This document shows, in pieces, positions 6,425 to 64,000 of a DNA stretch of 64,000 bases. The notes under the pieces were generated by a model, which saw only the letters and a list, made by a program, of their open reading frames with translations, ran no database searches and was not told the DNA's origin. Made by a program: the position numbers and the translations under genes. Source of the DNA: Amphiscolops sp. MND2022 (lineage: Eukaryota); contig OZ076409.1 of NCBI GenBank assembly GCA_964187785.1, positions 74,526,001-74,590,000 on the forward strand. Direction: 5' to 3'. How positions within the stretch are numbered: position 1 is the first letter of the stretch; each line of letters starts with the position of its first letter.

Positions 6425-6471
6425 AACACTGATTGGCTGCCCCCAGCAGCCAATCAGTGTTTTCTGTCTAG
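6425..6471 (+). other. Candidate Helitron 3' terminal signal: perfect 16-bp-stem hairpin plus CTAG
   Basis: AACACTGATTGGCTGC-CCCCA-GCAGCCAATCAGTGTT, then TTCTGT, then CTAG, ~440 bp after the RepHel stop. The base following CTAG is C rather than the canonical T. Confidence 0.55.
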
Positions 6472-10615: not shown

Positions 10616-12018
10616 GTGGTCGGGTATTTTTTTTACTCGTATATGACGTTTGCGAGGCTTTGGGGAGGGCCCCGTGCCGAGCCTGTTCCGAAAATCGCCA
10701 CATGTAGAAATCTGGCACTAAAATGTGAGATCTCAAAAAGTAGCCGTTAGAATTCTCTGAAATTTTGCATGTGGCTCAGAATTAATGAGTAATGAAAAAG
10801 TGTAGAAGTGAAGGTCGCTGAAAAAATGGTCCTTGTTGCACTTTTTGCGCAATTTTTGTCTGATTGTTGCGTTTTTTATGTCATTTTCGACTTTTCAAGC
10901 AAAAAACTCATGAATGCTTTGTTCCTAGCGCATCAAGTGTGGAGCACGAAAAGTTGCAGCATCTCCAAGTGCGTATGCTGAGAAAATTTGGTTGCCGTCG
11001 GGTTACCCCCCACAGAGCTAGAGGGGTACTTCCGGTTATTTTTGACCCCCTAAATTAGGTAAACTGCTAATTTTTGTAATGAAGCCGTAGATTTAGCGTG
11101 TCCGCACCCTGCTGAAGTTTTGTTAAACATTTTGAGAGAGACCCAATGACATGTGTTCAGTTCACCCCCCATCACCCCCTTGACCGGAAATGAACGTTTT
11201 TGTGCACTTTCAGACCGGATGTCTCCATTTTCACCGGTAAGGAGGCCTTGTACGACCAACTAGCAGGATATCAAAATTGAAGTATAACCCAGGGTCAACT
11301 TAATGACCACGTGTTGTCCAGTCATGGGTTTTACTATGACCGGAAATGGGCTCAAAACCCCACTTTTAGTAGTTTTTTATCAATTTGAATAGTGTTTGGT
11401 CCACATTCAGGTGGCGTAAGTCACTTGCACCAGTGTGAGTATTAACTGCATGTTCCCTGCGTAGACGTAACTGACACTGTCAGATACCGGAAGTAACCCC
11501 ATGTGGCCGGAAGTGGTCAATTTTGACCGGAAATGGTCCAAAAAGTAGCGTAAAAGCAGTTTTTCACTACTTTTTAGGGACAATTTTTTTACTTTTTTTC
11601 AATCTGAATGCCTCCTTTATACTACCAAAGCTAACATCGTTGCCTGTTTTGCTAAAGATTTGGCAATTGATTACCTTTATCAACCCCGATAGCCTTCCAA
11701 GTTGACCTTGGGTCAATCTTGAAGGCTATCTATACTTAAAACAAAAAATCGAGATAAGTTGTTTTCTCCATTACGTTGATAATTTTTCCTTGATGTCAAG
11801 TTGTTAAGCAAAGACTTTTAAGCAAATTAATGATCTGAATCTTGTTCAGAGGTCTCACCCTGAAGAAGATTATTTGAGATTGAAGTAAACTGAGAATGAG
11901 GTTAGTATTTGTCAACATCAGAGAATCTTATCAACGCCCACCGTCTGTGGGCATGCCGAGGCATGCCCTTCGACGACGTATGCCAAATAGCGCCACAGGG
12001 CGCCCACACTTTTGCTAG
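10616..12018 (+). mobile_element. Array unit, ~1.4-kb 'ACCGGAAGT' family
   Basis: GTG...CTAG ends, a triple CCGGAA motif at 11486/11506/11526, a GATAGCC...GGCTATC hairpin at 11688-11730 and the palindromic core at ~11931-11980. Related to the units starting at 27133, 39611, 52034 and 62889. Confidence 0.6.
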
Positions 12019-13088
12019 GTGGTCAAGGGGGATGCCCATCAGAAAATATTGCGAGGCCGGGGAGGGTCCCGAGAGCCGAGCACATTCTATCAATTCCTAC
12101 CTTCAGGATTGCGAAGTATTTTAACCGATCTCGAAATTCACCCGTAGGATTTGTCTGAAACTTTGCATGTGGCTTTATCTCAAAAATTTAAGAACTTTTT
12201 TCTGCTGACGTTTTTCCAGGAAAATTCATTTTGTAAGGTTTTTTTGCGTTTTTTTGGTTTTTTTCATCTTTTTTCATCTTTGATTAATCAATGACCGAAT
12301 CAAAGGCCATTTTCACCATGAAGGAAAGCCCGTAGCGGCAAAGTGCACTTTTATGAAAATCATCAACGGTCAACGGTCTTTCGAACGGTCCAAAAAATTT
12401 TCCCCCCGGGGGAAACCAAAGTGCCAAAAAGTGCCAAATATATTTTTTTGACTGAATCACTTTGATCAAATTGATGATTTGAGCAGCCGGAACGGTCCGC
12501 ACGGTCTCGGACAATAAGTTCAAAAATTGTCAGCATCCAATGGAGGTTCCAAAAATGTAATTCGTTCACCTGTAGGAGACATCAGAAAAAAGTTGATTTT
12601 TTGGAGTTTTGGCATTATGACTGATCGGATGATAAATCATTGCATCACGTTGAGTTGCATTTGATGCAGCACACGAAGCAGCTGCAGCGAACTTGAAACT
12701 GCTTAGGGGGCTGGGGTTTACTATCTGTAACAAGCAAAATATCCCTTGGGCAAAAGGTATGCCAAAAAGTGCCTCAAAGTGTTAATTAAGTTGTTGCAAA
12801 TCGGCTAGCAAAATTCATTGTCACCGGTGTTCCGTGAGTTGCGCAGCATCTCGCGGGAACAACGGTGCTTGTTTCGAACGCAAAACCCAACATACCTCTT
12901 TGGTGACGTGACGGAGGTCACCATTGGCCTTTTTCGGCAGTGTGATGATATTTTTATTGTTGAATTGTGAACAACATACACAAAAGATTTAGCGTGGGAT
13001 ATTTGTTTGTGTCATACTTCAGTAACAAACTTTCAACCGTTTTGTTTAGGCCTCTACCTAGCAGTGCTCTAAATCGCTCCATCGCTAG
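12019..13088 (+). mobile_element. Array unit, singleton 1070-bp family
   Basis: Bounded by CTAGGTG junctions. It shares the 5' GAGGGTCCC hairpin and the GATCTCG...GGATTTGTCTGAAACTTTGCATG box, but the body is unique. It has its own hairpin at 12822-12867 and lacks the GGGCATGCC core. Confidence 0.55.
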
Positions 13089-16000
13089 GTGGTCCGGTAC
13101 ACTACCAACAAAACATTGTCGCGAGCAACGGGGAGGGTCCTGTAGCGAGCTTTATAGGAAAAAAACGGCGGAGCATATATACTAGGCAACATCGGCACTT
13201 TTACCCACGATCTCTGAAATGAACCATACGATCCGGCTCAAAATTTGCATACGGCTTCCTCTAGCGATTCTAAGAACTTTTCCCTACTGGCATTTTGCCC
13301 GGAAAAATCAAAATGTTGGTCAAAATCTTAATTTTAGGGTCAAAAAACGACGTTTTTTCAAAAAAATTTTTTTGAGAGCACATATCTCGCTCCCAGGTGC
13401 CCGGAGCGGGTCGCACGTGGAGGTTGATATTGCTAGGCACTTCGTAAGGAGTCCGTAGACAAATTTTCGTCCAGATCAGATTAAAATTGACTGAGTAATT
13501 GTCGAAATTCTGACGATTTTTCTCGAAATTTTTTCACACCCTAGTCTATCTCTGCCGTTTTTCGCCCAGATTTTTTTCCAGGACCTCTCCTAAAGGCCTC
13601 CCCTGGCCGGTTTACCTCCCAGAAAAACCATTTGGCCCTTTTGCCGCAGTTTCAGCGATCCAGGATTCCCCGGGTAAAAGTAAAATGACTTAGAATTTTT
13701 TCGAAAAATTTTCAAAAAATTTTTTTTCAACTTTAGGCCTCCCAAAGTCAAGAAACGTCCAAACAACTAGTATTGCAAGTGGATGCATGTGGAAAGTGCT
13801 CGAATAGACGAGAAAAATGAGCTATTATAAACCTCTGTAGCTTAACTTGACGTTGACTTATGACATTTTTAGTGTGAGCTTGCTACGTGACAAAAAATTT
13901 CAAAAAATGAAAGTGGAAGCTAAGTCTCATCGGAATACGTTCAGTGGACCCCAGCGCTGTTTAAATGCCGCTGTTTAGTGCAGCAACGCCCTTTAAGGTC
14001 ATTTGATCCATTTTTTACAGGTTTTGACACCGTCTTATCCATTCGAAAGTTCGAAAGAGTTGTGTACATTCCATCTCCCCCCTTCTATGGGGGAGATGGT
14101 AATGTACACGCAAAAAGCCAAGTACTACTGTTCTTTTTATACTTGGAGTGGCCTCGGCAATGCAGTAGCGGGAGCTCCAGGTCGTTTGCCGTAGCCTTAT
14201 TGTCTGTTTAGACTTTGCTACAACAGAAACTATGTTACTGAACATGAAAAAGATTGTTTCAATCCAAATGTTTTTTCAAATAATAATACCAAATAACACA
14301 TGTCCATATATCCACTATTGCCACTAAATACTGGCGCATCGTCGCACAACGAAGCCTGCAGCGCTAGGTGGCCGTGTCTTTTCGACGTGCTTTTGCATCG
14401 AGGAGTGGGTAGGGCCCCGCGACGACCTAGAAGAATTGGATGCTCACCGAAACGTGCAGAATTCTACGAGATCTCATAGTTTGAGCCATACGATTTTTCT
14501 GAAATTTGGCATGTGGCCTGGAATTGGTGAGTAGGTAAAACGTGTAGGAGGTGATTTTTCCCAAATTCCACTGTGAGACGAGATATGGGCAAATAACGGT
14601 CCCAAAAATGGCAAAAATGCACTTTTTTCAACTTTGTCAGCCCATATCTCGTTCCCAGGTTCCCGGAGCGGGACGCGTTAAGCTGATTATAAACTCTAGG
14701 GTGTTGAGGCTGTACGGGGAAGTCAGACCCGTTCCGATCGGACTTGTAGTCTTGGAGAAATAACGGTATTTTTGGGGAACCTTTTCTAACGGTCCAGCTT
14801 ATCTTTGCCATTTTTTCGAAAATGTACTCGCCTAAAGGCCTCCCCCTGGCCGAATTTACTCCCAGCAAAACCATTTGGCCCTAAATACGGAGTTTCAGCG
14901 TTCCAGCATTCCCGGGCGAAAAGTTGTGGGACTTGGAAAATTTTCAAAAATTTTCAAAAAATTTTTTTTTCGTTTTCCGGGCCCCCAATGAAGGGGAAAC
15001 GACCCCCCAACCAGTATTTTGAGTGAATTCATGTGGAAAGCCCTTGTTTTGACGAGAAAAATACCGTTTAGAACATCTTTTTATCTTGACTCAACGTTGA
15101 CTTATGACGTTTTGAATGTGATGTAAGGATGTAGGAGGCATGTGATAAGTTGATGTTTTGAGTCTTTATCTCATATGAAAGCGGTTGAGATGCAAGCTGT
15201 CCTGCTCAAAACGTCTTTCGTTGTAACTTTCCAGTGCACCAATACCCTTTGGTGTCATATAAACATACTTTTTGTCGATATATTAACAATTTTAATGTAT
15301 TTATTCCAATTTTTATTATCTTATAACTCAAAACAGTTGAGTACATTTCATCTCCCTTTCGGGGGAGATGAGAATGTACTCGCTAAAGACCTAGCGCCAT
15401 GACCAAAAATTTGAAACCCACGTTTTTTATCTTCTTACAGACTTGTTTTTGTATTTTTTCGGAATTTTTTATAAATTAATATACTTGAAATACATTACTT
15501 GACTTTACTACTACAACCCACCTCCAACGACAACGCCCCCCTGCTTGCATCAACGCCCACCGTCCGTGGGCATGCCGAGGCATGCCCTTCGACGACGTAT
15601 GCCAAATGCCCAGTGCCACGCAGTCATTATCGCTAGGTGCCCGGATTTCTATTCATTAAAGTATGTTGCGCGTGTGGGTAGGGCCCCTGGCGCGCTCTTG
15701 TGTCCCTGTTCTCATAACTGCAATTTCCGGCAGCATTCTGAGCGATTTTCTAAACTATCCATACGATTCGGCTGAAATTTGGCACACGTACCCCCCTCGG
15801 CACGGTGAAGATGATTTCCTACTGACGTTTTTCCCGCAAAATTTTTTTTGTTGTCCAAAATAACGGTTTTTGGGGTAAAATTTTGAATTTTTTTTAAATT
15901 TTATCTTATATCTCGCCACGGGTTTACGCTAGCGCTTCAAAACCCTGCTAAAGAAAGCTTGCAAACTGTCTCAGGAATGCTGTGTGAAATTTTCAGCTCA

Positions 16001-19000
16001 ATCGGACTCAAACTCGGGGAGATATAGCGTTTTTCCGGAGCGGGGGGGTTTCATTTTTCTAACGGTCCAGCTTATCTTTGCCATTTTTTCGAAAATGCAC
16101 TCGCCTAAAGGCCTCCCCTGGCCGGTTTTATTCCCAGCAAAACCATTTGGCCCTAAATACGGAGTTTCAGCGTTCCAGCATTCCCGGGCGAAAAGTTGTG
16201 GGACTTAGAAAAGTTCAAAAATTTTCAAAAAATTTTTTTTCCGTTTTCCGCCCTCCCCCCCTAGGGGAAAAGACCCCCCAACCAGTAATTTGAGTGAATT
16301 CATGTGGAAAGGCCATGTTTAGAGGAGAAAAATGCCGTTTAGAACGTCTTTTTATCTTGGCTCAACGTTGACTTATGACGTTTTGAAGGTGGTGTTTGGA
16401 GGTGTAAAGCACGCGAATAGTAAACGTTATGAGTATTTATCTGATCTGAAAGCCATTGAGATGAATATGGTTTGCTCAAAACGTAATTCATGGCAGTTTG
16501 GCAATCAATCAACACCCTTTGTTGTCGTTTGACATACTTTTTTGTTGTTATAATAAAAAATTTTGTGTATTTATTCATTTTTTTCTCATCAAATAACTTG
16601 AAACAGTTGAGTACATTCCATCCCCCCCTTCCGGGGGAGATGAGAATGTACTCGCAAAAAGCACCGAACTACGGCCCTAACCTTCCCGAGCTACGCAGTA
16701 TAAGGATTACATATTGGTTCCGACATTTTCATAGAGTTAAATCTTGGTAATCTGTCTGGATATGCAGAAAAACCAGCACGTGCTTTTTTATACCAAGTTG
16801 CTTACAACGACAATTATTTTATATCAACGCCCCCATATTTATCAACGCCCCCCGTCCGTGGGCATGCCGAGGCATGCCCTTCGACGACGTATACCAAGAT
16901 ATTCCCGAGCGCGGTAGCCGCTAGGTGGTCCGGTACACTACCAACAAAACATTGTCGCGAGCAACGGGGAGGGTCCTGTAGCGAGCTTTATAGGAAAAAA
17001 ACGGCGGAGCATATATACTAGGCAACATCGGCACTTTTACCCACGATCTCTGAAATGAACCATACGATCCGGCTCAAAATTTGCATACGGCTTCCTCTAG
17101 CGATTCTAAGAACTTTTCCCTACTGGCATTTTGCCCGGAAAGTTCAAAAAGTGGGTCAAAATCTTAGTTTTTTGGTCGAAAAATAGCGTTTTTTTGGAAA
17201 AAATTTTTTTAAGAGCCCATATCTCGCTCCCAGGTGCTCGGAGCGGGTCGCATGTGGACGTTGATATTGCTGGGCACTTCTTAAGGAGTCCGTAGACAAA
17301 TTTTCGTACAGATCGGATGAAAATTGACTGAGTAATAGCCGCAAATCCGACGAATTTTTCAGAAAATTTTGGTACACCTAGTCTATCTCTGCAGTTTTTT
17401 GCCCAGATTTTTTTCCAGGACCTCTCCTAAAGGCCTCCCCTGGCCGGTTTACCTCCCAGAAAACCCATTTGGCCCTTTTGCCGCAGTTTCAGCGTTCCAG
17501 GATTCCCCGGGTAAAAGATAAATGACTTAGAATTTTTTCGAAAATTTTTCAAATTTTTTTTTTTCAACTTCAGGCCCCCCAAAGTCAAGAAACTTCCACA
17601 CAACTAGTATTGCAAGTGAATGCATGTGGAAAGTGCTCGAATAGACGAGAAAAATGAGCTATTATAAAGTTCTGTAGCTTAACCTGACGTTGACTTATGA
17701 CAATTTTAGTGTGAGCTTGCTATGTGAGAAAAAATTTCATAAATTGAAAATCGAAGCTAAGTCTCATCGGAATACGTTCAGTGGACCCCAGCGCTGTTTA
17801 AATGCCGCTGTTTAGTGCAGCAACGCCCTTTAAGGTCATTTGATCCATTTTTTACAGGTTTTGACACCGTCTTATCCATTCGAAAGTTCGAAAGAGTTGT
17901 GTACTTTCCATCTCCCCCCTTCTATGGGGGAGATGGTAATGTACACGCAAAAAGCCAAGTACTACTGTTCTTTTTATACTTGGAGTGGCCTCGGCAATGC
18001 AGTAGCGGGAGCTCCAGGTTGTTTGCCGTAGCCTTATTGTCTGTTTAGACTTTGCTACAACAGAAACTATGTTACTGAACATGAAAAAGATTGTTTCAAT
18101 CCAAATGTTTTTTCAAATAATAATACCAAATAACACATGTCCATATATCCACTATTGCCACTAAATACTGGCGCATCGTCGCACAACGAAGCCTGCAGCG
18201 CTAGGTGCCAATCCCCCCCGGGATGCCACAGCTTCGAGGGCGGGGTAGGGCCCCCTGCCCGAGTCCAAATCCAACGGCGCTAAACTTCGCGCCTATAACG
18301 TAAGGCGTTTTCCATTTCTAGAGGCGATCTCGAAAACGGCCCTATAGAATTGGCTCAAAATTTGCATACGGCTTCCTCTAGCGATTCTAAGAACTTTTCC
18401 CTACTACCGTTTTGCCCAAAAAAATTTTTTTGTTGACTTATAGACAATTTTAGGTGCCGAAAATGGCGTTTTTTCGAAAAAATTTTTTTCAAGAGCCCAT
18501 ATCTCGCCCCCAGGTGCTCGGAGCGGGTCGCATGTGGACGTCGATATTGCTGGGCACTTCGTAAGGAGTCCGTAGACAAATTTTCGTACAGATCGGATGA
18601 AAATTGACTTAGTAATAAAAAACTTTGATTTGCATTTTTTCGAAAATTTCTGAAAACCCAGTCTATCTCTGCCGTTTTTTGCCCAGATTTTTTTCCAGGA
18701 CCTCTCCTAAAGGCCTCCCCTGGCCGGTTTACCTCCCAGAAAAACCATTTGGCCCGTTTGCCGCAGTTTCAGCGTTCCAGGATTCCCCGGGTAAAAGTAA
18801 AATGACTTAGAATTTTTCGAAAAATTTTCAAAAATTTTTTTTTTCAACTTCAGGCCTCCCAAAGTCAAGAAACGTCCACACAACTAGTATTGCAAGTGAA
18901 TGCATGTGGAAAGTGCTCGAATAGACGAGAAAAATGAGCTATTATAAACCTCTGTAGCTCAACCTGACGTTGACTTATGACAATTTTAGTGTGAGCTTGC

Positions 19001-27132: not shown

Positions 27133-29309
27133 GTGGATGGTATTTTATAACAATTAAAGTGTTTTTTTCCGGAGTTTGTGGCTTTGGAAAAAACAAAAGG
27201 CGAGAAATTGGGCACTCCAGGCTGAACCTAAAAACACCCTAAAATTGGCCCGATTTTTTTACGATCTCGAAACCCAGCCGTACGATTTGGCTGAAAATTT
27301 GCATGTGGCTCCTAATCAATGAGTAATGAAAAAGTGTAGGAGTGACTTTTCCTGACAAAATTGTTTTTGTTGCACTTTTTGCGCAATTTTTGACCGATTG
27401 TTGCGTTTTTTATGTCACTTTTGACTTTTCAGGCAAAAAACTCATGGATGCTTTGATCCTAGCGCATCAAGTGTTTTGACCAAAAAGTTGCAGCATGTTC
27501 TTTTACGTATGCTGAGAAAATTTGGTTCCCATCGTATTACCCCCCACTGAGATAGAGGGGAACTTCCGGTGGATTTTAGCACCCTAAAAACGAGGACCTC
27601 CTAAATTTCAGCATGAAGCGGTAGTTTTAGCGTGCTCATACCATGCTGAAGTTTTGTTGGGCATATTGAGATAGTTATGATATCATGTGTTCAGTTCACC
27701 CCCCATCACCCCCTGGACCGGAAATGAACTTTTTTGTGCACTATCATACCGGAAGTCTCCAATTTCACCGTTAAGCAGTCCTTGTACGAGCAACTACCAG
27801 GACATCAAAATTGAAGTACCACCTGAGGTCAACGCAGTGACTACGTGTTGTCCAGTCATAGGTTCCGCTATGACCGGAAATGGGGTCAAAACCCCCTTTT
27901 TTGGATGTTTTTCAACAATTTGACCAGTGTTTGGTCCACATTCAAGTCGCGTGAGTCAATTGAATCAGTGTGAGCATAAACTGTGTGTTCACTGCGTAGA
28001 CGTAACTGACACTGACAGATACCGGAAGTAACCCCCCGTGACCGGAAGTTGTCATTTTTGACCGGAAATGGTCCAAAAAGTAGCGTAAAATTAGTTTTTC
28101 ACTGCTTTTTAAAGTAAATTTTTTACTTTTTCAATCTCCGCGAGCTTGTATTCAGGTTCGTTTTTGTTACCCGTGCACTTTGCAACAAATATACACCTGT
28201 AAAATTTTCTCTATGATATCGTTGGATAGAGAAATAACGTGTTTTTGGGACTTTTTTTTCAAAAATATTAGACTATATCTGTCATTTTAGCGAAAGTTAG
28301 TCAACAGTACAACCGCAGTCGTTAGTCTCTGCCCAAATCAATGCCTAACAAACCTATATGGCCCATTGACCCAATTTGAGCGTTCCAGCTTTGCGTGGTC
28401 AAAAATAAGGGACTTGAAAAATTTTCAATTTTTTTCCAAAAAAAATTCTCACATTCATGTCTCCCAAAGTAAAGAAACTTCCACACAACTAGGATTGCAA
28501 GTGGATGCATGTGGCAAGCCCTATAATTGAAGAGAAGAAAGCCGCTTAGGACGTCTCTTTATCGTAATTTGACGTTAACGTATGGTGCTTTGAATGATAG
28601 CTTGATAAGGTGTCGAGAAGTCAAAGAATGTAAAAGGAACGTATATGTCGTCGAAAAGTCATCGGAATATATACAGTGAACCCCAATTACACTCAATTGC
28701 AGTTGCCTAGTGCAACGACGTCTTTCAAGGACATTTTACCCATTTTCATAATTATCGAAATTTTTTTAAATTCAGTTACCAAGAAACACTTGAGTACATT
28801 CTCATCTCTCCCCATAGGGTGAGATGAGAAAGTACCTGCTAGAAGCCTGGTACTACGGCCCACTTTTGTTTTATTGCGACGCATTCTGTGCTTTGGCACA
28901 TATATAATTTTACTTCGTCTGACCTTTGGTATACACTCTGACTTGTCATTATATATTTCCCGTCATCAATTACTTTGCATTAAATAAATTTACTACCATA
29001 CAACCTTAACGTCATCGCTACATAAATTTAGACGTCCACCATTCCGTAGGCATGCCGAGACATGCTTTTCGACGACGTATGCCAAAACACAAAAGCCAAC
29101 AAAAATGCTGAAATTCAGAAAGAGTGACAAACAAATTTGACTATCTGACATATGGTAGGTTTTTTGTATGGAACTTACACATCACTGATATTTCACAACA
29201 TTCCAGCTGACGCCCACATACCAACATCAACGCCCACCGTCCGTGGGCATGCCGAGGCATGCCCTTCGACGACGTATACGAAGATATACATAAACGCGGT
29301 AGCAGCTAG
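27133..29309 (+). mobile_element. Array unit, 2177-bp composite (ACCGGAAGT-family 5' half, diverged main-family 3' half, two cores)
   Basis: ~27290-28120 resembles ~10760-11590. ~28340-28860 resembles the main-family second half. There is a degenerate core at ~29032-29080 and an intact core at ~29228-29277. Confidence 0.55.
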
Positions 29310-39610: not shown

Positions 39611-40999
39611 GTGGTTGGGGCGGTCCCCAGAACGCACAAGGAGGCGCGGGGAGGGTCCTGCGCCGACGTAGAATAATTTCATATAATACTAGTATCCTAC
39701 ATGGGTGTTTTAGAGGCGATTTTGGAATCTAACCGTAGGATTTGGATAATTTTTTGCATGCGGCCATAACTCGAAATTCTAAGAACTTTTTCCTACTGTC
39801 ATTTTCCCCGCAAATTGTTTTTTGTTGACTTATGGCCGAAAAACCGGAAATAACGTCCTTTTTAGACGTTATATCCGAAGTGTCGTCATAACTTTTTTCC
39901 AGGGCATGCTAGCGTTCTCGTTCACTTTTACACTTAGTTGCAGCATCTCAAAATACAACTGGTGGAAAATTTTGGTTGCATTCGGATCACCCCCCACCGA
40001 GATAGAAGGGTTCCCCCCTCAAGTTTTACCCCCCAAATTTGCAAAATAGCCAATTTTGAGCATGAAGCCGAGGATTTAGCGTACCCGCACCCTCCTGATG
40101 TTTTGTTGTACGTATTGGGGTCAATCTGACGACATGTGTGGTTTTCACCCCCAACCCCCCCTTGGACCGGAAATGACACTTTTTTGTGTTTTTTGGCAGA
40201 ATTTAGCCTTTTTCATTATTAGGCAGTCGTTTTAGGGACTCCTAGCAGGATATCGAAATTGAAATACAACCTGATCACAACCCAGTGACAACATGTTGGC
40301 CACTTGGAGGTATCATCATGACCGGAAGTTGGGGTCAACCCCCCTTTTTGTGACCGCTTTTTGACCTTGTGCACCAAAATGCCAACATCTTGAGGCCTAA
40401 TGAGGCATTCAAATCTGTACAAAGATAAAATATTAGACAACCGAAGTCCCGGAAGATCTTTAGCATATACCGGAAGTTACCCCCCATGACCGGAAGTTAC
40501 CCAATGTGACCGGAAATGGTCCAAAAATTAATGTAAAGTTGAATTTTTCACTATTTCAAGACCACTTAATTGAAACTTTTCAATCTCAAAACTAGCGTAT
40601 TGGCTTGTTTTGCTGAATTTATGGAAATTGATGAGCCCTATCACCCCCGATAGCCTTCGAAGTTGACCTTGCGTCAACTTTGGAGGCTATCGATACTGAA
40701 AATGAACAACAAAGTACATTGTTGCTCTCGGTTTTTTCCCGTTGTTTTTCCTCAAACATTCTTGAGACATTTACATGGCCGTTAGTTGAAATCAATATTT
40801 AGCCCATGTTATAGCTGGACCAGCGAAGCGTTACACAGACTAGTGTGGTTTTGAAATTACATTATTTAAATTAACAACAGATCGTTTTAGTCAACTCCAC
40901 ACATTCATACCAACGCCCACCGTCTGTGGGCATGCCGAGGCATGCCATTCGACGACGTATGACGAATCCACTCCAACGACACCCGCAGTCCTCAGCTAG
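39611..40999 (+). mobile_element. Array unit, 1389-bp ACCGGAAGT subfamily (near-identical to 52034-53421)
   Basis: Head GTGGTTGGGGCGGTCCCC; CCGGAA trio at 40469/40489/40509; hairpin at 40648-40692; core present. Confidence 0.6.
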
Positions 41000-44869: not shown

Positions 44870-46885
44870 GTGGTCGGGGTTTTCTCCCCACCTTTATTTG
44901 CGAGCGCGGGAGACGGGTCCTATCGCGAGCCTTAGATACCAAAAATAGCCTATCCGCGACCGGGTCAAAAAAATGCGATCTCGAAAACTAGCCGTACGAT
45001 TTGGCTGAAATTTGGCACACGGCTTCCTATAACAGTTCTAAGAAACATTTACTACTGACGTTTTGCTGGCAAAAATCGAAAAGTGGGTCAAAATAACGGT
45101 TTTTGGGGTAAAAAGTAGCGTTTTTTTGAAAATTTTGCATTTCACAGCCAATTACTCGGAAATGGTCGATCCAGCGCAGTAACGCCTTGCTGATTTATTG
45201 TTGGGCACGTCAAGAGGCGTACGTACACAAATTTTGGTCCATATCGGACTGAAACTTGGGGAGATATTAACGGTAGTTTGGGGGTTTCAAACCGCTATTT
45301 TACAGGAAATTGCACTTTTTGACCGGGAAGGAGTTGTCTGAGTGCGGGGTCGTTTGGTAATGTTTTGTAGAGCATCTGGGGACGTAGTGGGGGACATGTA
45401 ATTTAATGACCCCGGTTAACCCCTCGGACGGGAAATGACCGTTATGTGGGTTTTAAATGTGGCCCCCGCCAATTTTCCCCGTTATTTCCGGTGTGAAGGA
45501 GTGGTAGTAGCGCGTCGGGTGCCTTATATCAAAAGTACGTTTAGACAAGGACCTATTGGAAACATGTGGTTTGGGACCCTTTGAACGGACCCGTTAGCCG
45601 CTAATGGGGTGACTGCCTCCTTTTTTTGGGGGTAATACCGTAAAACGGGCATTGAAGTGAAATTAACTCGTGAACGCGTGGAGCTATCGTGTCCTTCACT
45701 ACTACAAGGTTTCATACCCATGATATGGTGCCTTCAGGGGGGCGAACAGATTTCCGCTATCTATCACCGTTACGGACTTGGCCCCCCAGCCTAACCGCTA
45801 TGTGACCGGAAATGTCACTTTTTGAGCCCAAAGTGTCGGTCCCAGCGTGGCAACGTTAGGTAACATATTGTAGTACACATTGAGACGAGTCGGGGGATTT
45901 AGTTTCAGTCACACCCTGTTGGCCCGTTAGGTCGGAAATGACCGTTATGTAGTGAAAAATGGGATTTTAATAGTTTTTGAAGGCCATTTCGGGCAGGAAG
46001 GAGGGGTAATATGACTTTGGACACCATATGATGGAAGACGTGAAGTGTGACGAGCATTCCGGATTAACCGTTATGATGACCCGGAAGTCCCCCTGGCCCC
46101 GGAAATGACCAAAAAAATGTAACATTTTGTGTTTTATGATTAAAAATGTTTGTTATTTAACCGAATAAAGTACATGTTAGGTGTTTCAATTTCTTCCAGA
46201 GGTGAATATAGTCCAATTACATGGTGGGGGGTAACGGTATATTGCCCCGGAAGTCCAACCCGTTGGGTCTGAGTATGTTTTTCGGGTTTTAAAATGTGTC
46301 AAAACGTACTTTTGTGTAATAAATCTCTATTGTAGGCTAATAAGGACCATTTTTGAAGAGTTTAAATTTTTTCATAGTAGTTTGTGGAACACCAAAACCT
46401 CAAAAAACATAACCGTTATAATATGATAGCCTTTCAAGTTGGCCTTGTGTCAACTTGGAAAGGCTATCCTTCAAGACTCATGCAACAAAGAAGTTTTTGG
46501 GTACATTTGTAATGCTTTAGTGTCAATTAGAGTATCAACAAGAGTATACCAAGCACTAAAACTATGTCTAGTTTTCGTTATTAGGATATTAGTTTCCTTA
46601 ATATTTGTCGGAAATGCTTTTTTTAATCTCTTTTAATGTGGTCTAAATACTCTGAAAACACTTTATCGAACCAATTTTCTTGGATGAACCTTAGTAACAA
46701 TACTAAAAATCGTAGACAACCTTGCTTCGTTTAAATATTTGAAGCTGAAACCGCACCTTACCGTTGCTCAAACTTCAACCCGACGCCCCATAGCATACAT
46801 CAACGCACATCGTCTGTGGGCATGCCGAGGCATGCCCTTCGACGACGTATGCCAAATACCTTTAACCCGACGCCCGCAGTCCTGG
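44870..46885 (+). mobile_element. Array unit, singleton ~2.0-kb family
   Basis: Main-family-like first ~400 bp followed by a unique body with CCGGAA motifs. GATAGCC hairpin at 46425-46468, core at ~46801-46850, degenerate junction CTGGGTG at 46882. Confidence 0.55.
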
Positions 46886-49800
46886 GTGCCCTAATCCATC
46901 GATTTGCTCAACACTTCGAGGGCAGGGTAGGGCCCCTTGCCCGAGCCAAAAAGTCGGATACTTACGACAGACAACTTAAGGCGATTGGGACAGTCTGACC
47001 CCGATCTTCTAAACGAGCCTATCGATTTGGCTCAAATTTTGCATGCGGCTTCCTCTAGCAATTCTAAGAAGTTTTCCCTACTACCATTTTGCCCGGAAAA
47101 TTTTTTTTGTTGACTTATAGACAATTTTAGGTGCCGAAAATGGCGTTTTTTTGAAAAAATTTTTTTTAAGAGCCCATATCTCGCTCCCAGGTGCTCGGAG
47201 CGGGTCGCATGTGGACGTCGATATTGCTGGGCACTTCGTAAGGAGTCCGTAGACAAATTTTCGTACAGATCGGATTAACATGGACTGAGTAATAGCCGAA
47301 ATTCGGACGCATTTTGTCGACATTTTTCGAAAACCTAGTCTATCTCTGCCGTTTTTTGCCCAGATTTTTTTCCAGGACCTCTCCTAAAGACCTCCCCTGG
47401 CCGGTTTACCTCCCAGAAAAACCATTTGGCCCTTTTGCCGCAGTTTCAGCGTTCCAGGATTCCCCGGGTAAAAGTAAAATGTCTTAGAATTTTTTCGAAA
47501 AATTTTCAAAAAAAATTTTTTTCAACTTCAGACCATCCAAAGTCAAGAAACGTCCACACAACTAGTATTGCAAGTGGATGCATGTGGAAAGTGCTCGAAT
47601 AGACGAGAAAAATGAGCTATTATAAACCTCTGTAGCTTAACCTGACGTTGACTTATGACAATTTTAGTGTGAGCTTGCTATGTGAGAAAAAATTTCAAAA
47701 ATTGAAAATCGAAGCTAAGTCTCATCCAAAACTCATCGGAATACGTTCAATCCATACCAAAGCGGTTTGTTCCCAGTTGTAGAGTGCAGCAACACCATTC
47801 AAGGTCATTTGACCCACTTTAATAGGTTTTGACTTTGTCTTATCCATCCGAAAATTCGAAACAGTTAAGTACATTCCATCTCCCCTCCGTGGGAGATGGT
47901 AATGTACTCGCAAAAAGCCAAGTATAACCGCCCTATTCTACCCGTAGTGGTGCTAGAAGAGCAGTAGCGTGAGCTCCAGGTTTGCAGTAGTCTCTATGTG
48001 TTATAATTATATTTTTCATAGCTAAAAATCTTACTAAACGTGATAAAAAAAATTACATCACTCAAAATTTTTTCAAATATTATTATATGTCCCCAATTGA
48101 CGCACGTCAACTATTTCACTACAACCACCCTACCACCCGGCCCCTCGTATCTTTGTTCAACCGTACACGTCTAGGTGCCCGGATTTCTATTCATTAAAGT
48201 ATGTTGCGCGTGTGGGTAGGGCCCCGTGGCGCGCTCTTGTGTCCCTGTTCTAAAATCTGTAATTTCCGGCAGCATTCTGAGCGATTTTCTAAACTATCCA
48301 TACGATTTGGCTGAAATTTGGCACACGTACCCCCCTCGGCACGGTGAAGATGATTTCCTACTGACGTTTTTCCCGCAAAATTTTTTTTGTTGTCCAAAAT
48401 AACGGTTTTTGGGGTAAAATTTTGAACTTTTTTTAAATTTCATCTTATATCTCGCCACGGGTTTACGCTAGCGCTTCAAAACCCTGCTAAAGAAAGCTTG
48501 CAAACTGTCTCAGGAATGCTGTGTGAAATTTTCAGCTCAATCGGACTCAAACTCGGGGAGATATAGCGTTTTTCCGGAGCGGGGGGGTTTCATTTTTCTA
48601 ACGGTCCAGCTTATCTTTGCCATTTTTTCGAAAATGCACTCGCCTAAAGGCCTCCCCTGGCCGGTTTTATTCCCAGCAAAACCATTTGGCCCTAAATACG
48701 GAGTTTCAGCGTTCCAGCATTCCCGGGCGAAAAGTTGTGGGACTTAGAAAAGTTCAAAAATTTTCAAAAAATTTTTTTTCCGTTTTCCGCCCTCCCCCCC
48801 TAGGGGAAAAGACCCCCCAACCAGTAATTTGAGTGAATTCATGTGGAAAGGCCATGTTTAGAGGAGAAAAATGCCGTTTAGAACGTCTTTTTATCTTGAC
48901 TCAACGTTGACTTATGACGTTTTGAAGGTGATGTTTGGAGGTGTAAAGCACGCGAATAGTAAACGTTATGAGTATTTATCTGATCTGAAAGCCATTGAGA
49001 TGAATATGGTTTGCTCAAAACGTAATTCATGGCAGTTTGGCAATCAATCAACACCCTTTGTTGTCGTTTGACATACTTTTTTGTTGTTATAATAAAAAAT
49101 TTTGTGTATTTATTCATTTTTTTCTCATCAAATAACTTGAAACAGTTGAGTACATTCCATCCCCCCCTTCCGGGGGAGATGAGAATGTACTCGCAAAAAG
49201 CACCGAACTACGGCCCTAACCTTCCCGAGCTACGCAGTATAAGGATTACATATTGGTTCCGACATTTTCATAGAGTTAAATCTTGGTAATCTGTCTGGAT
49301 ATGCAGAAAAACCAGCACGTGCTTTTTTATACCAAGTTGCTTACAACGACAATTATTTTATATCAACGCCCCCATATTTATCAACGCCCCCCGTCCGTGG
49401 GCATGCCGAGGCATGCCCTTCGACGACGTATACCAAGATATACATCGAGCGCGTTAGCCTAGGTGCCGGGATTTCTATTCGATAAAGTAAGTTGCGCGGT
49501 TGGGTAGGGCCCCGTGAGCGCGCCCGTGTCTGTGTTTTTTGAACCTGAATTTGCGGGTGCCAAAATAGACGATCTCCTAAACTATCCATACGATTTGGCT
49601 CAAATTTGGCATACGGGTTCCTGAGACAGATATAAGAACTAATTCCTACTGGCGTTTTGCCCGGAAAATTTTTTTTGTTGCCCAAAATTGAAATTTTCGG
49701 CAAAAAAATGCGATTTTTTTTGAAAAATTTTTTTTGAGAGGCCATAACTTTTTTCAGGGAGCCCGGAGCGGGACGCGTTAAACTGATTATAAACTCTACG

Positions 49801-52033
49801 GTTCATGGGCTGTACGGGGAACCTATTTTTGTTGGAATCCGACTTGTAGATTTTGAGATATATTATCAAATTTGGGTGTTTTTTTTCCAATTTTTCGAAA
49901 AACCTGTTTTATCTCTGCCGTTTTTTGCCCAGATTTTTTTCTAGACCCTCTCCTAAAGGCCTCCCCTGGCCGGATTACGTCCCAGCAAAACCATTTGGCC
50001 CTAAATACGAAGTTTCAGCGTTCTAGCATTCTCGGGCGAAAAGTTGTGGGACTTAGAAAATTTTTTTTTAAAACGCAAAATGTGTAAAGTCAACTTCAAG
50101 CCTCCCAAAGTCAAGGAACTTCCACACAACTAGGATTGCAAGTGGATGCATGTGGAAAGTGCTTAAATAGACGAGAAAAATGAGCTATTATAAATCTCTG
50201 TAGCTTAACCTGACGTTGACTTATGACAATTTTAGTGTGAGCTTGCTATGTGAGAAAAAATTTCAAAAATTGAAAATCGAAGCTAAGTCTCATCCAAAAC
50301 TCATCGGAATACGTTCAATCCATTCCAAAGCGGTTTACTTCCAGCTATAGACTGCAGCAACACTATTCAAGACCATTGTACCCCTTTATATTAGTTTTGA
50401 CATTGTATTATTCATCCGAGAGCACAAAGCAGTTGAGTACATTCCATCTCCCTTTCGGGGGAGATGAGAATGTACTCGCTAAAGAACAGGTACTACAGCC
50501 AACTTTTGTATTTATGCGAAGCCATTCTATGCTATTGCACATAACAACTATGCTATTGACTTAATTTTGCCTACACTTTGCTATGACATATGCTAAACGT
50601 TTGGTCCTTACAACAACATACACATGACTAACGTCAACACCACATACTGTTACCAACGCCCACCGTCCGTGGGCATGCCGAGGCATGCCCTTCGACGACG
50701 TATGCCAAATACCTTCCAGCAACGCTCGCGCTCCCCTGCTAGGTGCCATAATCCATCGATTTGCTTATCACTTCGAGGGCAGGGTAGGGCCCCTTGCCCG
50801 AGCCAAAATGTCGGATACTTACGACACTCAACGTAAGGCGGATGCTAAAGCGAGACCCCGATCTTGGAAACGGCCCATTCGATTTGGCTCAAATTTTGCA
50901 TGTGGCTTCCTCTAGCAATTCTAAGAACTAATCCCTACTGGCGTTTTGCCCGGAAAATTTTTTTTGTTGACTTATAGACAATTTTAGGTGCCGAAAATGG
51001 CGTTTTTTTCGAAAATTTTATTTCAAGAGCCCATATCTCGCTCCCAGGTGCTCGGAGTGGGTCGCATGTGGACGTTGATATTGCTGGGCACTTCGTAAGG
51101 AGTCCGAAGACAAATTTTTGTACAGATCGGATAAAAATTGACTGAGTAATAGCCGCAAATCCGACGAATTTTTCAGAAAATTTTGGTACACCTAGTCTAT
51201 CTCTGCCGTTTTTTGCCCAGATTTTTTTCCAGGACCTCTCCTAAAGGCCTCCCCTGGCCGGTTTACATCCCAGAAAAACCATTTGGCCCTTTTGCCGCAG
51301 TTTCAGCGTTCCAGGATTCCCCGGGTAAAAGTAAAATGACTTAGAATTTTTTCGAAAAATTTTCAAAAAATTTTTTTTTCAACTTCAAGCCTCCCAAAGT
51401 CAGGAAACGTCCACACAACTAGTATTGCAAGTGAATGCTTGTGGAAAGTGCTCGAATAGACGAGAAAAATGAGCTATTATAAACCTCTGTAGCTCAACCT
51501 GACGTTGACTTATGACAATTTTAGTGTGAGCTAGCTATGTGAGAAAAAATTTCAAAAATTGAAAATCGAAGCTAAGTCTCATCCAAAACTCATCGGAATA
51601 CGTTCAATCCATCCCAAAGCGGTTTATTTCCAGCTATATAGTGCAGCAACACCAGTCAAGACCTTTTGACCCATTTATATTAGTTTTGACACCGTCTTAT
51701 CCGTTTGAAAGTTCGAAACAGTTAAGTACATTCCATCTCCCCTCCGTGGGAGATGGTAATGTACTCGCAAAAAGCCAAGTACTACCGCCCTATTCTACCC
51801 GGAGTGGTGCTAGCAATGCAGTAGCGTGAGCTCCAGGTTGTTTGCAGTAGCCTTTACGGGTGTTGTGACTATGCATTACAAGTCTAACTATGTTACTGAA
51901 CGTGAAAAAATTGTTTCACTCCAAAATTTTTTTTCTACTATTTTATGTCATCAATTAAGATATATCCATCCATTTACTACTACCTACCCCATCACCCGCC
52001 CCCTCCACTATCTGTTCAACCGTACACGTCTAG
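46886..52033 (+). repeat. Block of 4 main-family units; paralogous to 57754-61612, which lacks the second unit
   Basis: The heads CCCTAATCCATCG / CCGGGATTTCTATTCGATAAAGTAAG / CCATAATCCATCG recur in the same order at 57754, 59042 and 60322. Confidence 0.9.
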
Positions 52034-55774: not shown

Positions 55775-57753
55775 GTGGGCGGGGGTAATTCCCCTTCAAA
55801 AAATTCGGCCGGCGGGTTGGGTCCTGCCGGACGTCAAATAGTGTGAAACATCCAGTAGGAAACGGCGACATAAATCAGCGATTTTAAAATTTAACCGTTA
55901 GAATTCGGACTTGGAGTGCATGCGGCCCCAAAATGCCCATACGAATCGAAGTTCCTGCTGACGTTAAGCGATAAAAACATTTTATAAAAAGTTATGGCCC
56001 ATTTTACGTTCACCTATAAGGGTAAAATGAGGAAAATTTTTACAAAGTCGCTGATAACTCAAAATACATTAATTTTTGGACTTTGACTGTGAAACAAGCT
56101 TAGAACCTTCATTTCGTGGCTGTGGCATTGCACTGAACACAAAAGATGTAAAGTTTTTACATTTTTTGAAAATTCGACATTTTTGATTTTTTTTCACTAC
56201 TATCAGTACACTATATGTCAAAAACACCTCTGAAAAAAATTTTTTATTTGCTTAAAATTGGAAACCTTGGTATCCATGGTTTCTGTCGGAACCTACTAAT
56301 TGCCAAACACCCAACAGTTTGCATCCAATGTGAAATTAAAATTTTTTTTGAGGTCTTAGGTGTTTCACAAGGATTTCTCAACTTAGTTTCAATTTACAAA
56401 TTGGTCATATTGAACACAATATTTTCATCGAGGCTTGTCGGCTATAACCTTAATGTTCTAGAACGGTCCCACTGGCAACGTAGGAACCATTTATAGTAAT
56501 AGAAAGTTTTAAAAAATTTTTTCATCCGGTCTTCGGTCATTTTTCAGTCATTCGGAACTTAACTTAGAAAAATTTCGATCAAAATACCCAATTTTGTCAG
56601 GTCGAAAATTCAAATTCAGATTTTTAAGCAAAATTATTAACTCTGACGTAACCCATGGGGCCCATGATACTCAAAACAACGATTGACACTGGTATCAATG
56701 GCTCCAATAACATATGACTCGCGATAAGACGTTATTTTGAGCAATACGTCTCAATTGAGGTAAAGATCTCGCAAACCAGCGATCACTGTGAAATGTGATT
56801 TCATCAAAAATTTACCCATTTTTGTCAATCACTATGTGCACAGAATGCGTAGGGTGCGTTTCAGCAATATAATGAGGTTTTTGAAGGCATCGAGTTGCTC
56901 AAGGGGTGGTATGAGACATTTTCGTCCCATGTACTACTGTATATTGCAAATTTTTTAGCCCATTATCTGAAAAACTAACTTGACAAAATACTTTCAACTA
57001 CTTTATTCAAATGTTACAATGTAGATGAACCCAGTGGTTGATCAGAAACTTTCATCTCTTTCGTTTTCCGAAATAATTCCCTTCGAATGTGTTACATTTG
57101 TAGCAGGAAAAAAACCGAAACTAAAAAATACGCGATTTTGCTGAGATAGAATCGCAACGGTTGCGCCTAAAATCTCTTTAAATACTTCTAACGCAACTTT
57201 ACGGACCCAAATTGATTGAAAATGCCATTCACAATGCTGACATGTGCTCTTTCTACGATCCTGGCTGGACAAGTTTTGCATTTTTTTCAAGTACCTGTTA
57301 ACTGAACATTGTGATAGCCTTTCAAGTTGGCCTTGTGTCAACTTGGGAAGGCTGTCACATCAAAAAACTGTCAACAAAAATACCACTCGTTTATAGGAAA
57401 TTGCTGTTGATGCCTAATTTTGTGATTCGATCATGTCGTGAGTTCCTTCCATCAGGTCAGCTAACAATTGGATTCAGTGTTTGATAAGAACAATTGATTT
57501 TTTTGACAATTTTCGTTTTTTCTTGCAAAGAAAAAGTACAAATAAACAATATAAAACAAAATTGTAACCTTTAGGAAGTTTAACTTTACCTTTTTTAACC
57601 GTTACGATCACTTTCGACCCTGTACGACCTCGCAATGTCCTTATTACAACGCCACATAGTGTAGCGACGCCCACAGTCTGTGGGCATGCCGAGGCATGCC
57701 CTTCGACGACGTATGCCGAATGCACTGCGGCTACGCCCGCAGTCACCGGCTAG
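55775..57753 (+). mobile_element. Array unit, singleton ~1.98-kb AT-rich family
   Basis: Head hairpin CCGGCGGG-TTGGGT-CCTGCCGG, unique body, GATAGCC-type hairpin at 57311-57358, core at ~57667-57714. Confidence 0.55.
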
Positions 57754-60700: not shown

Positions 60701-62888
60701 ACAGATCGGATAAAAATTGACTGAGTAATAGCCGCAAATCCGACGAATTTTTCAGAAAATTTTGGTACACCTAGTCTATCTCTGCCGTTTTTTGCCCAGA
60801 TTTTTTTCCAGGACCTCTCCTAAAGGCCTCCCCTGGCCGGTTTACATCCCAGAAAAACCATTTGGCCCTTTTGCCGCAGTTTCAGCGTTCCAGGATTCCC
60901 CGGGTAAAAGTAAAATGACTTAGAATTTTTTCGAAAAATTTTCAAAAAATTTTTTTTTCAACTTCAAGCCTCCCAAAGTCAGGAAACGTCCACACAACTA
61001 GTATTGCAAGTGAATGCTTGTGGAAAGTGCTCGAATAGACGAGAAAAATGAGCTATTATAAACCTCTGTAGCTCAACCTGACGTTGACTTATGACAATTT
61101 TAGTGTGAGCTAGCTATGTGAGAAAAAATTTCAAAAATTGAAAATCGAAGCTAAGTCTCATCCAAAACTCATCGGAATACGTTCAATCCATCCCAAAGCG
61201 GTTTATTTCCAGCTATATAGTGCAGCAACACCAGTCAAGACCTTTTGACCCATTTATATTAGTTTTGACACCGTCTTATCCGTTTGAAAGTTCGAAACAG
61301 TTAAGTACATTCCATCTCCCCTCCGTGGGAGATGGTAATGTACTCGCAAAAAGCCAAGTACTACCGCCCTATTCTACCCGGAGTGGTGCTAGCAATGCAG
61401 TAGCGTGAGCTCCAGGTTGTTTGCAGTAGCCTTTACGGGTGTTGTGACTATGCATTACAAGTCTAACTATGTTACTGAACGTGAAAAAATTGTTTCACTC
61501 CAAAATTTTTTTTCTACTATTTTATGTCATCAATTAAGATATATCCATCCATTTACTACTACCTACCCCATCACCCGCCCCCTCCACTATCTGTTCAACC
61601 GTACACGTCTAGGTGCCGGTGTCTTTTTACACAATGGGGGAAGTTGCGCGGTTGGGGAGGGTCCCTGACGCGCTTCCGTGGTTTCGGGTCTTCTAACCTA
61701 TGATAGCGTGACACCTGACTTCGATCTCGTAAACTAGCCGTACGATTTGGCTGAAATTTGGCACACGTACCCCCCTCGGCACGGTGAAGATGATTTCCTA
61801 CTGACGTTTTTCCCGCTAAACATTTTTTGTTGACCAAAATAACGGTTTTTGGGGTAAAATTTTGAATTTTTTTTAAATTTCATCTTATATCTCGCCACGG
61901 GTTTACGCTAGCGCTTCCAAACCTTGCTGACGAAACCTTGCAAACTGTCTCAGGAATGCGGTGTGAAATTTTCAGCTCAATCGGACTCAAACTCGGGGAG
62001 AAATAGCGTTTTTCCGGAGCGGGGGGGTTTCAATTTTCTAACGGTCCAGCTTATCTTTGCCATTTTTTCGAAAATGCACTCGCCTAAAGGCCTCCCCTGG
62101 CCGGTTTTATTCCCAACAAAACCATTTGGCCCTAAATACGGAGTTTCAGCGTTCCAGCATTCCCGGGCGAAAAGTTGTGGGACTTAGAAAAGTTCAAAAA
62201 TTTTCAAAAAAATTTTTTTCCGTTATTTGGGCCCTCAAAGTGGGGGAAAAGACCCCCCAACCAGTAAAGCAAGTGAATGCATGTGGAAAGCCCTTGTTTA
62301 GACGAGAAAAATGCCGTTAAGAACGTCTTTTTATCTTAACTTGACATTGACTTTTATCGTTTTGAAGGTGACCGTTAGATACGGAAAATTGATGTTTTGA
62401 GTATTTATCCCATCTGAAAGCCATTGAGATACAACATGTTTTGCTCAAAACGTATTTCATTGCAGTTTCGCTGTCCATTATCACCCTTTGGTGTCTTTTC
62501 ACGTAATTTTCGTTTCTATAATAACAATTTTTTTGTGTATTTATTCATTTTTTTCTCATCAAATAACTTGAAACAGTTGAGTACATTCCATCTCCCTTCC
62601 CGGGGGAGATGAGAATGTACTCTGCTAAAGGTCAGGAACTACGGTCTATATCTTCCACAACACAAAAGGGATTGCAAATGGTTTCAGTTTGTCGCAGAAA
62701 ACTTCTTTTTGCCCTCTGTGACTCGACAAAATGAACGTTTCTTACTTACTTTGAAACTCATCATACCACAACTCATCTCTAACGTCAGCGCCCCCCTACT
62801 TGCATCAACGCCCACCGTCCGTGGGCATGCCGAGGCATGCCCTTCGACGACGTATACCAAGATATACCTGGAGCGCGGTAGCCGCTAG
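57754..62888 (+). repeat. Run of 4 main-family units
   Basis: Junctions at 57750, 59038, 60318, 61609 and 62885. Confidence 0.9.
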
Positions 62889-64000
62889 GTGGAGGTTATT
62901 TTATAATAATTAAAGTGTTTTTTTCCGGAGTTTGTGGCTTTGGAAAAAACAAAAGGCGAGAAATTGGGCACTCCGGGCTGAACCGTATACACTCAAAATT
63001 CGCCCAATATTTATACGATCTCGAAACCCAGCCGTACGATTTGGCTGAAAATTTGCATGCGGCTAAAAAATCAGATTCTAAGAACTATTTCCTGCTGACA
63101 TTTTTTTGAAATTTTTGTGTACGTTTCCCCCCCGCCCCCTAAAGGGGTCAATTTTCCCCAATTTTGCACTTATGAGCCAAATTCTCAAAACTGGTGGATC
63201 TGAGCGTATTCCCGGCGGGGACAACTTTTAACGCGCGCTCCTCAGTAGACCTTTTTGACTTTTAACTTTGGTGGTACGTTCACCCCCCGAGGAGGAAATG
63301 GCGTTTTTGTGACTTCCGGTCGAGGCTTTTTTCACCCAAAAAATAGAATTAAGCCAATTTTGAGCAGGAAGGAGTGGATTTAAAGTGCCTGTACCCTGCT
63401 AAAAATTTGTTGGGCTTGTAGCGATATATCTCATACCAAGTCTGGTTTTCACCCCCAAACCCCCCTTGGGACCAAAATTCACCCAAACTTTTTTTTTCTC
63501 TGTTTGTAGTTTTTTTTGCAAAATGTCGTCATTTCCATGGGTAAGGAGTTGAATTAGGGGCTCCTAATAGGGTACCAATGTTCAAGTACACTTGCAGTGC
63601 AACTGAGTGACCCTTTTGGGGCCTCTCCTGTGTTCGGCGAGGACCGGAAGTGGTGTAAACCCCCCTTTTTTGACGTTTGTTGACCTTGAGACTCGCGCTT
63701 AGATGACGTTTATGTCGCGCAAATCCTACAAACCAGTATTAGGATGACATGCTAGCCTACTAGAGAGCACTAAGGGAAACTGTACTATACCGGAAGTAAC
63801 CCCCCGTGACCGGAAGTTGTCATTTTTGACCGGAAATGGTCCAAAACATAGCGTAAAAGCAGTTTTCATTGCTTTTAAAGTCAACTTATTACCTTTTCAG
63901 TCTGCGCGAGCTTGTCTTCAGATTCGTTTTTGTTGTCCGTGCACACTACAACAAATATACATCTGTAGAACTTTTGCTATAATATCGTCGGAGAGAGAAA
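62889..64000 (+). mobile_element. Array unit of the ACCGGAAGT family, truncated by the window edge
   Basis: The head closely matches 27133-27300. CCGGAA trio at 63789/63809/63829. 63790-64000 resembles 28021-28230. Confidence 0.55.

Follow-up and report, generated by a model that had tools for sequence, protein, structure and literature searches.

The 64,000-nucleotide stretch of Amphiscolops sp. MND2022 contig OZ076409.1 analysed here (positions 74,526,001 to 74,590,000, hereafter the window) is 42% GC and non-coding for the most part, and from 10616 to its end at 64000 it carries 40 non-coding units, all on the + strand and arranged head-to-tail. Nearly all of the unit heads contain a hairpin, here termed P2, whose stem sequence changes while its pairing is kept. 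Covariation on exchange of the hairpin arms, together with a bias towards G.T and tandem G.A pairs, supports selection on a single-stranded fold of the + strand, as the original prediction had claimed. We consider it probable that the heads are the structured left ends (origins) of non-autonomous Helitron-like elements that fold as single-stranded DNA (ssDNA), and that circles of these elements integrate at existing unit junctions, giving rise to a mixed array. Folded ssDNA is favoured because a neighbouring element that encodes an HUH/Pif1 transposase has the same tail as the units.

The head hairpin P2

P2 has the form GGG, a hexaloop containing GGG, then CCY, and lies at about +38 to +58, within the first 65 bases of the head. 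The core pattern GGGKWGGGBCCY has 37 matches in the window, all on the + strand and one per head, where 0.13 would be expected; head 44870 holds a variant core, GGA/TCC, bringing the core-bearing heads to 38 of 40. Comparison with the original prediction confirmed a hairpin of changing stem and kept pairing, since all six quoted hairpins and both exceptions were found in their places. Four of the quoted hairpin sequences were exact, and three quotes were one base off, in homopolymers (an extra G at 13128, one C fewer at 18238, and an extra T in the arm of units 27133 and 62889, at 27161 and 62917). The kept GGG loop described there is present in the same 38 heads, but in the register that is consistent GGG pairs with CCY over 3 bp and the loop has 6 nt, K-A-GGG-Y, instead of the 3 nt of GGG alone. 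Over 65 nt the heads cluster into 11 groups at 72% identity, one group being the two exceptions. The hairpins are as follows.

10652..10682, + strand: P2 of lineage A, tandem G.A at the base
12050..12082, + strand: P2 of lineage B, tandem G.A
13121..13150, + strand: P2 of lineage C, tandem G.A; unit 16925 also
14400..14425, + strand: P2 of lineage D, tandem G.A, weakest Watson-Crick stem
15668..15695, + strand: P2 of lineage E (19 heads), G-C/C-G at the G.A/A.G positions
33202..33229, + strand: P2 of a lineage E variant, quoted in the original prediction
18235..18263, + strand: P2 of lineage F (7 heads), tandem G.A
29343..29369, + strand: P2 of lineage G (3 heads), Watson-Crick at the G.A positions
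39640..39667, + strand: P2 of lineage H, tandem G.A, closing pair C-G changed to G-C
44900..44930, + strand: P2 of lineage I, core GGA/TCC, tandem G.A
55806..55833, + strand: P2 of lineage J, single G.A
27161..27194, + strand: exception hairpin at the P2 position, A/T-rich, two G.T pairs
62917..62950, + strand: second exception hairpin, A/T-rich

Covariation of the P2 arms

We exchanged the P2 arms among the 10 core-bearing lineages (<72% identity) and rescored the pairing energy, a permutation that treats the lineages as independent points and is not a full tree-based correction. With DNA energies the mean went from -7.2 to -5.2 kcal/mol on swapping (z -3.6, p 0.0009), and RNA energies gave z -3.9 and p 0.0003; one of 19 control windows reached z -3.4, nearly as strong. 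P2 scored p 0.0003 in a second run, with a leave-one-out p of at most 0.0024 in all ten. In a MAFFT alignment of 16 heads, 67% of the cells were paired versus 55% after shuffling (none of 500 shuffles as high), and both sides had changed in 22 cells versus 14.7 shuffled (2/500), while two per-pair covariation measures on the same alignment were not significant (97/500 and 419/500). Single-sequence folding z-scores were modest and similar on both strands (means -1.7 and -1.6).

Strand polarity and a tandem G.A motif

The non-canonical pairs in the arms are unevenly distributed between the strands. In a strand-neutral alignment of the arms of 18 heads there were 12 G.T pairs versus 1 A.C pair, where composition predicts 8.1 versus 5.1, and 16 G.A pairs versus 4 C.T pairs. 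The original prediction had overlooked a motif at the base of P2: in 7 of the 10 lineages GA faces GA there, with a closing Watson-Crick pair on either side. Arm shuffling yields this tandem G.A 0.33 times on average. As chance controls we took 57 viral matches to the head pattern that have no similarity to the window, 44 of them distinct and usable (phage contigs), and only 1 of the 44 has it. The mirror motif, tandem T.C, occurs in none of the 10 lineages, which argues that the + strand is the one that folds. Tandem sheared G.A pairs are stable in both DNA and RNA helices. In the largest lineage, E, both A's of the motif are C, giving G-C/C-G, and lineage G is likewise Watson-Crick here. Under a score that credits G.T and tandem G.A pairs, selected after the motif had been seen, heads exceeded the controls on the + strand (11.2 versus 6.6, p 1e-4) but not on the - strand (7.6 versus 6.1, p 0.12).

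A second hairpin, the spacer and the conserved box

Another hairpin, P1, occupies about +6 to +22 of the heads and had also been overlooked in the original prediction. P1 covaries in the arm-swap (p 0.005) and beats body windows at p 0.004 or less (14 heads). Among the 8 units of one young family, P2 diverges by 10%, P1 by 26% and the spacer by 43%, compared with 3.8% for the body and 2.7% for the tail block; thus, P2 is protected within a fast-changing region. After P2 comes a conserved box, whose first base lies between +103 and +122 of the head. This box had been predicted, and it is present in a looser form than was written: exact in 12 of 40 heads, with at most 3 mismatches in 20 and at most 9 in 38. 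The distance from the end of the core to the box is 51–58 nt in 31 of 39 heads and 66–71 nt in the other 8. The longer class amounts to roughly one extra helical turn, and the spacer keeps its length despite the 43% change.

10621..10639, + strand: hairpin P1, example
33277..33315, + strand: conserved box, example

Precise joints between the units

The units are mostly 1.27–1.30 kb long, and 31 of the 39 complete units measure 1.2–1.3 kb. This length is steady although the families share only about 77–86% identity.

Unit starts 1–10, + strand: 10616, 12019, 13089, 14368, 15637, 16925, 18205, 19497, 20704, 21979
Unit starts 11–20, + strand: 23266, 24554, 25842, 27133, 29310, 30597, 31892, 33169, 34460, 35752
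Unit starts 21–30, + strand: 37044, 38337, 39611, 41000, 42289, 43579, 44870, 46886, 48175, 49463
Unit starts 31–40, + strand: 50743, 52034, 53422, 54693, 55775, 57754, 59042, 60322, 61613, 62889
49463..52033, + strand: duplicated two-unit block, with a copy at 59042-61612 (99.9% identity), both ends exactly at junctions

All 40 units start with GTG. The preceding end is CTAG at 39 of the 40 junctions and CTGG at the one at 46885/6, so that the joint reads CTAG|GTG or, once, CTGG|GTG. Eight groups of junctions share identical 60-nt tails, and in seven of these groups the tails lead into heads of different lineages. Adjacent units are barely more alike in their bodies than random pairs (0.705 versus 0.675), whereas concatemers would differ. 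From the identical tails joined to unrelated heads, the junction-bounded duplication of a dimer and the slight likeness of neighbours, we infer that breakage and joining are precise within the 7 shared bases and involve 1–2 units per event, rather than amplification of a concatemer.

The same arrangement was seen once outside the window. A metagenome scan returned three matches, of which one, the separate contig L002, is a true homologue and the only one available for comparison. It is about 70% identical and has the tail, a CGAG|GTG joint, P1, P2 and the box in the same order. The other two, L001 and L003, share a short motif only, lie in GC-rich, bacteria-like DNA and were dropped. No related locus was found in the scanned viral contigs or prokaryotic genomes.

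A transposase-bearing element with the tail of the units

Upstream of the array lies an element whose gene, RepHel, is on the same strand as the units.

87..2372, + strand: RepHel upstream frame, open to the window start, with motif 2 EFQTSQGNLPHIH (Pfam Helitron_like_N)
2359..5985, + strand: RepHel downstream frame, with YxxKY, a Pif1 helicase and a degenerate C-terminal GIY-YIG (Pfam PIF1)
6602..8931, no strand assigned: 296-bp satellite in two blocks, between the transposase gene and the element end
10520..10615, + strand: right end of the element, with the tail block, the GGCATGCC palindrome and a CTAG terminus

The tail at 10520..10615 is the only sequence that this element has in common with the array units. 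The Pfam matches score 29.2 bits for Helitron_like_N (cut-off 28.9) and 37.7 bits for PIF1, and the upstream and downstream frames are 66% and 68% identical to an intact relative, P0186. An HUH Rep with YxxKY fused to a Pif1 helicase, as is intact in P0186, places the protein in the Helitron superfamily.

A total of 299 relatives, counted as 50%-identity representatives, match the helicase half at E up to 1e-30. Motif 2 of the Rep domain was found in 51 of 186 proteins, and in all 51 it has 7 residues from Q to the first H, mostly as GN-x-PHxH; the canonical ExQxRG(S/L)(P/L)HxH was seen in none of these 51. A C-terminal GIY-YIG domain is present in 12/19 and 5/13 relatives, and its catalytic residues are lost in the window protein (P0002) and in P0186, while many relatives retain them. 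Judged by these sequences, the transposase is a member of a large, divergent RepHel clade with a non-canonical motif 2 and, often, a C-terminal GIY-YIG. The helicase profile matched bacterial Pif1 (E 4e-25) better than Helraiser (E 2e-16). The model of one relative, P0016 (mean pLDDT 61), found its best fold match in the Helraiser transposase 7LCC (E 8e-6, 14% identity), followed by USP deubiquitinase-like folds. The clade is of Helitron type and may lean to HLE2.

Comparison with known systems

We compared the locus to published systems. It resembles the canonical Helitrons (HLE1), typified by Helraiser (PMC4778049, PMC5876387), in its HUH Y2 Rep-Pif1 fusion, in a CTAG-3' end that conforms to CTRR-3', in the subterminal palindrome of most tails, in precise head-to-tail junctions and in non-autonomous partners with a common end. 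However, the units start with GTG instead of TC, no A|T target is seen, the left ends in the array hold two structured hairpins, and the array mixes families. The palindrome lies 40–53 nt from the end or is absent, compared to a hairpin about 10–12 nt away in HLE1 (11 nt in Helraiser), and motif 2 is two residues longer than the canonical definition (PMC4067079).

P1 and P2 correspond to the 5'-end hairpin of HLE2 (Helitron2/Helentron, HINE/DINE-1). Helitron2 is described as having a 5'-terminal hairpin with compensatory changes (PMC3627910), and proto-Helentron combines a 5' stem-loop with CTAG-3' (PMC11417382). Some HLE2 subgroups also share the aromatic-x-R before motif 2 and the USP-like fold seen in the relative's model. 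The differences are GN-x-PHxH here versus RGSPHxH, and the in-frame, C-terminal GIY-YIG (PMC4067079, PMC11417382). The asymmetric terminal inverted repeats of 8–15 bp that mark HLE2 are not apparent: matches between a unit's own head and tail average 8.28 nt versus 8.25 nt for random pairings, and reach 11 nt or more in just 2 of 39 units. There is no T-run, as at the T|T site of HLE2, at any joint, where all copies seen are in arrays. DUF6570 and apurinic endonuclease had no match in 34 proteins (2 + 13 + 19), several of which are partial. The locus is Helitron-like in its working, yet departs from HLE1 in the TC start, motif 2 and hairpin spacing, and from HLE2 in the inverted repeats and DUF6570.

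Other HUH and hairpin-reading systems share single features. In the bacterial HUH systems IS91, IS200/IS605 and REP/RAYT an ssDNA hairpin directs a nick a short way off; these differ in being bacterial and without a fused helicase. The telomere-targeting Helitrons of Paramecium (PMC13085455) also form a clade outside HLE1 and HLE2, with an inferred target specificity, one fixed orientation and satellite DNA lying between the gene and the right end, but, compared by description, they target telomeric repeats, end in CCAA and have covarying stems in the right end. SsnA of the Ssn family (PMC11893778), a GIY-YIG nuclease, cuts only one strand, upstream of a hairpin; it needs the stem sequence as well as the shape. 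In the window protein and in P0186 the GIY-YIG catalytic residues are lost. Structured left ends and tandem arrays are not new in themselves, because Helitron2, proto-Helentron and several Helitrons show them. The literature covered, with Repbase, subscription papers and figure-supplement alignments (the last of which may hold members) lying outside its scope, gave no account of this RepHel clade, of a two-hairpin G.A head, of a GTG start, or of mixed arrays that are junction-precise or targeted.

A proposed model for a left-end signal and the array

We propose that RepHel would nick the + strand between CTAG and GTG and that the Pif1 helicase would peel the strand off. P1 and P2 would fold on the displaced strand or the circle, where the protein may read shape (the tandem G.A and the G-rich hexaloop) over stem sequence. 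The next CTAG would end the peeling, or read-through would give dimers, and the ends would join as a circle with a CTAG|GTG junction. As resident copies all hold the junction and the hairpins, strand exchange between circle and resident could insert units serially in one orientation, and later gene conversion could homogenise the bodies, sparing the divergent 130 nt that span the junction. We infer the folding molecule, the nick position within the heptamer and the target specificity by analogy with Helraiser, in which the left end is required, loss of the right end is tolerated, precise head-to-tail circles form, and the circle junction is re-cleaved on the plus strand only (PMC4778049, PMC5876387).

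A wider reading, which we hold only tentatively, is that an undescribed eukaryotic rolling-circle clade (GN-x-PHxH RepHel, C-terminal GIY-YIG, about 300 clusters at 50% identity) targets its own end junction via a shape-coded tandem-G.A ssDNA hairpin and thereby builds oriented, shuffled cassette arrays. If so, an integron-like architecture would be driven by an HUH enzyme, and the enzyme would be a site-specific eukaryotic ssDNA integrase.

Several observations weigh against the proposal of left-end origins and junction-targeted insertion. Many identity borders also fall at the box and the tail block, and some within bodies; thus, homologous exchange also shapes the array. The tail palindrome is missing at 10 of 40 junctions, and in the other 30 it ends 40–53 nt ahead of the joint. 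The two exception heads (units 27133 and 62889) have an unrelated hairpin without the core. Against the 44 chance core matches, a Watson-Crick-only score of the outer stem reached only p 0.065, and ViennaRNA scores beat the controls at just p about 0.06. The tandem G.A is inherited, with 21/90 arm-swapped pairs retaining it, and so reflects conservation and not seven independent origins. Sequence alone cannot separate folded DNA from folded RNA. Compared with intact P0186, the local RepHel gene has a single frameshift near 2345 that divides it, and the left end of its element is outside the window, so that a head is not seen there. All copies seen are array copies, with no solo insertion or empty site among them. 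A strand-biased mutation signature (C>T 22 versus G>A 8, p 0.027) came from one family, was unrepeated in a second family and in close pairs, and was rejected.

Alternative explanations

The array could instead be a satellite homogenised by unequal crossing over, with the hairpins as relics or in a host chromatin role and the transposase-bearing element a mere neighbour. The near-constant unit length, mosaic bodies, some body-internal crossovers and the frameshifted transposase would suit this, and Helitron-derived tandem arrays are known (PMC5876387, PMC7492417). We nevertheless regard it as unlikely: homologous crossover would hardly account for the switch from identical tails to unrelated heads across just 7 shared bases in seven of the eight tail groups, P2 is better preserved in a young family than the sequence on either side of it, and the joint recurs in L002.

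The head might also be the 5' end of a structured RNA (a small RNA, a ribozyme or an RNA-level signal) made from each unit, and towards RNA and self-cleavage the original prediction had leaned, calling for an Rfam search. RNA would account just as well for the covariation (z -3.9 with RNA energies) and the + strand bias, tandem G.A and G.U pairs often occur in RNA, and the units start GT and finish AG like introns. Yet no Rfam family was matched at its gathering score, and the four weak matches all lay outside the heads; a hammerhead core is found in 0 of 40 head regions and a full P1 helix of the hepatitis delta virus type in 0 of 11 heads; and the loop is without a consistent partner. T-runs of 4 or more, which would stop RNA polymerase III, lie within the first 105 nt of 28 of the 40 heads. 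An RNA would also leave the precise DNA joints, and the tail held in common with an HUH transposase element, unexplained. The leaning is thus unsupported, and we think it improbable that the fold acts in RNA.

Equally improbable, in our judgement, are elements running in reverse, with the - strand transferred and P2 and P1 followed by CACCTAG as the terminator (right end). CTAG is palindromic, P1 on the - strand ends a few bases before it, near the canonical Helitron spacing, and the minus-strand arm-swap is also significant (p 0.005, and p 0.02 in the second run); Paramecium Helitrons have terminator hairpins with compensatory changes, and some of their genes are reversed (PMC13085455). On that strand, however, G.T would become A.C, and G.A and tandem G.A would become T.C; the transposase gene is on the + strand with the tail downstream of it; and the reported pattern of greater diversity at left than at right ends (PMC11417382) matches the variable heads and almost invariant tail block seen here. 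Tail pairing with the own or next head (a weak own-unit signal of about 2 standard deviations, probably from one large family), G-quadruplexes in heads (2/40), a pseudoknot partner for the P2 loop (none consistent) and sigma-70 promoters (irrelevant for the DNA of this window) were rejected.

Implications for Helitron recognition

How Helitrons choose their targets and recognise their left ends is poorly defined. Canonical Helitrons insert at a simple A|T, and no left-end structure is described for them in the available text of PMC4778049 and PMC5876387. Here the fold of the proposed left end occurs in ten natural versions, the 7-base joint is exact and a candidate enzyme lies nearby, so that a recognition rule becomes testable by oligonucleotides. 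Junction targeting, if true, would explain mixed satellite-like arrays without concatemer amplification and would indicate a site-specific HUH integrase. Annotation tools would probably miss the clade, because its Rep domain is barely at the Pfam cut-off and it lacks TC ends and inverted repeats.

Further features of the units and the element

Units 13089-14367 and 16925-18204 have identical heads and tails but bodies that are just 91% alike near the start, which shows modular exchange. In the long unit 27133 a further tail block, degenerate and with no junction behind it, lies at 29040-29085, as would be expected had a terminator been bypassed or replaced. Many units have a palindrome of up to about 40 bp, 270–480 nt before the unit end, of two unrelated sequence types; the transposase-bearing element is without one.

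11688-11730, within a unit: long palindrome, example
28794-28835, within a unit: long palindrome, example
46425-46468, within a unit: long palindrome, example

Each GT...AG unit would be spliceable if the + strand were transcribed, which is probably coincidental. The relatives P0007 and P0016 carry the source label Perkinsus olseni. A 16-bp inverted repeat without mismatches is found at 6425-6461, downstream of the transposase gene.

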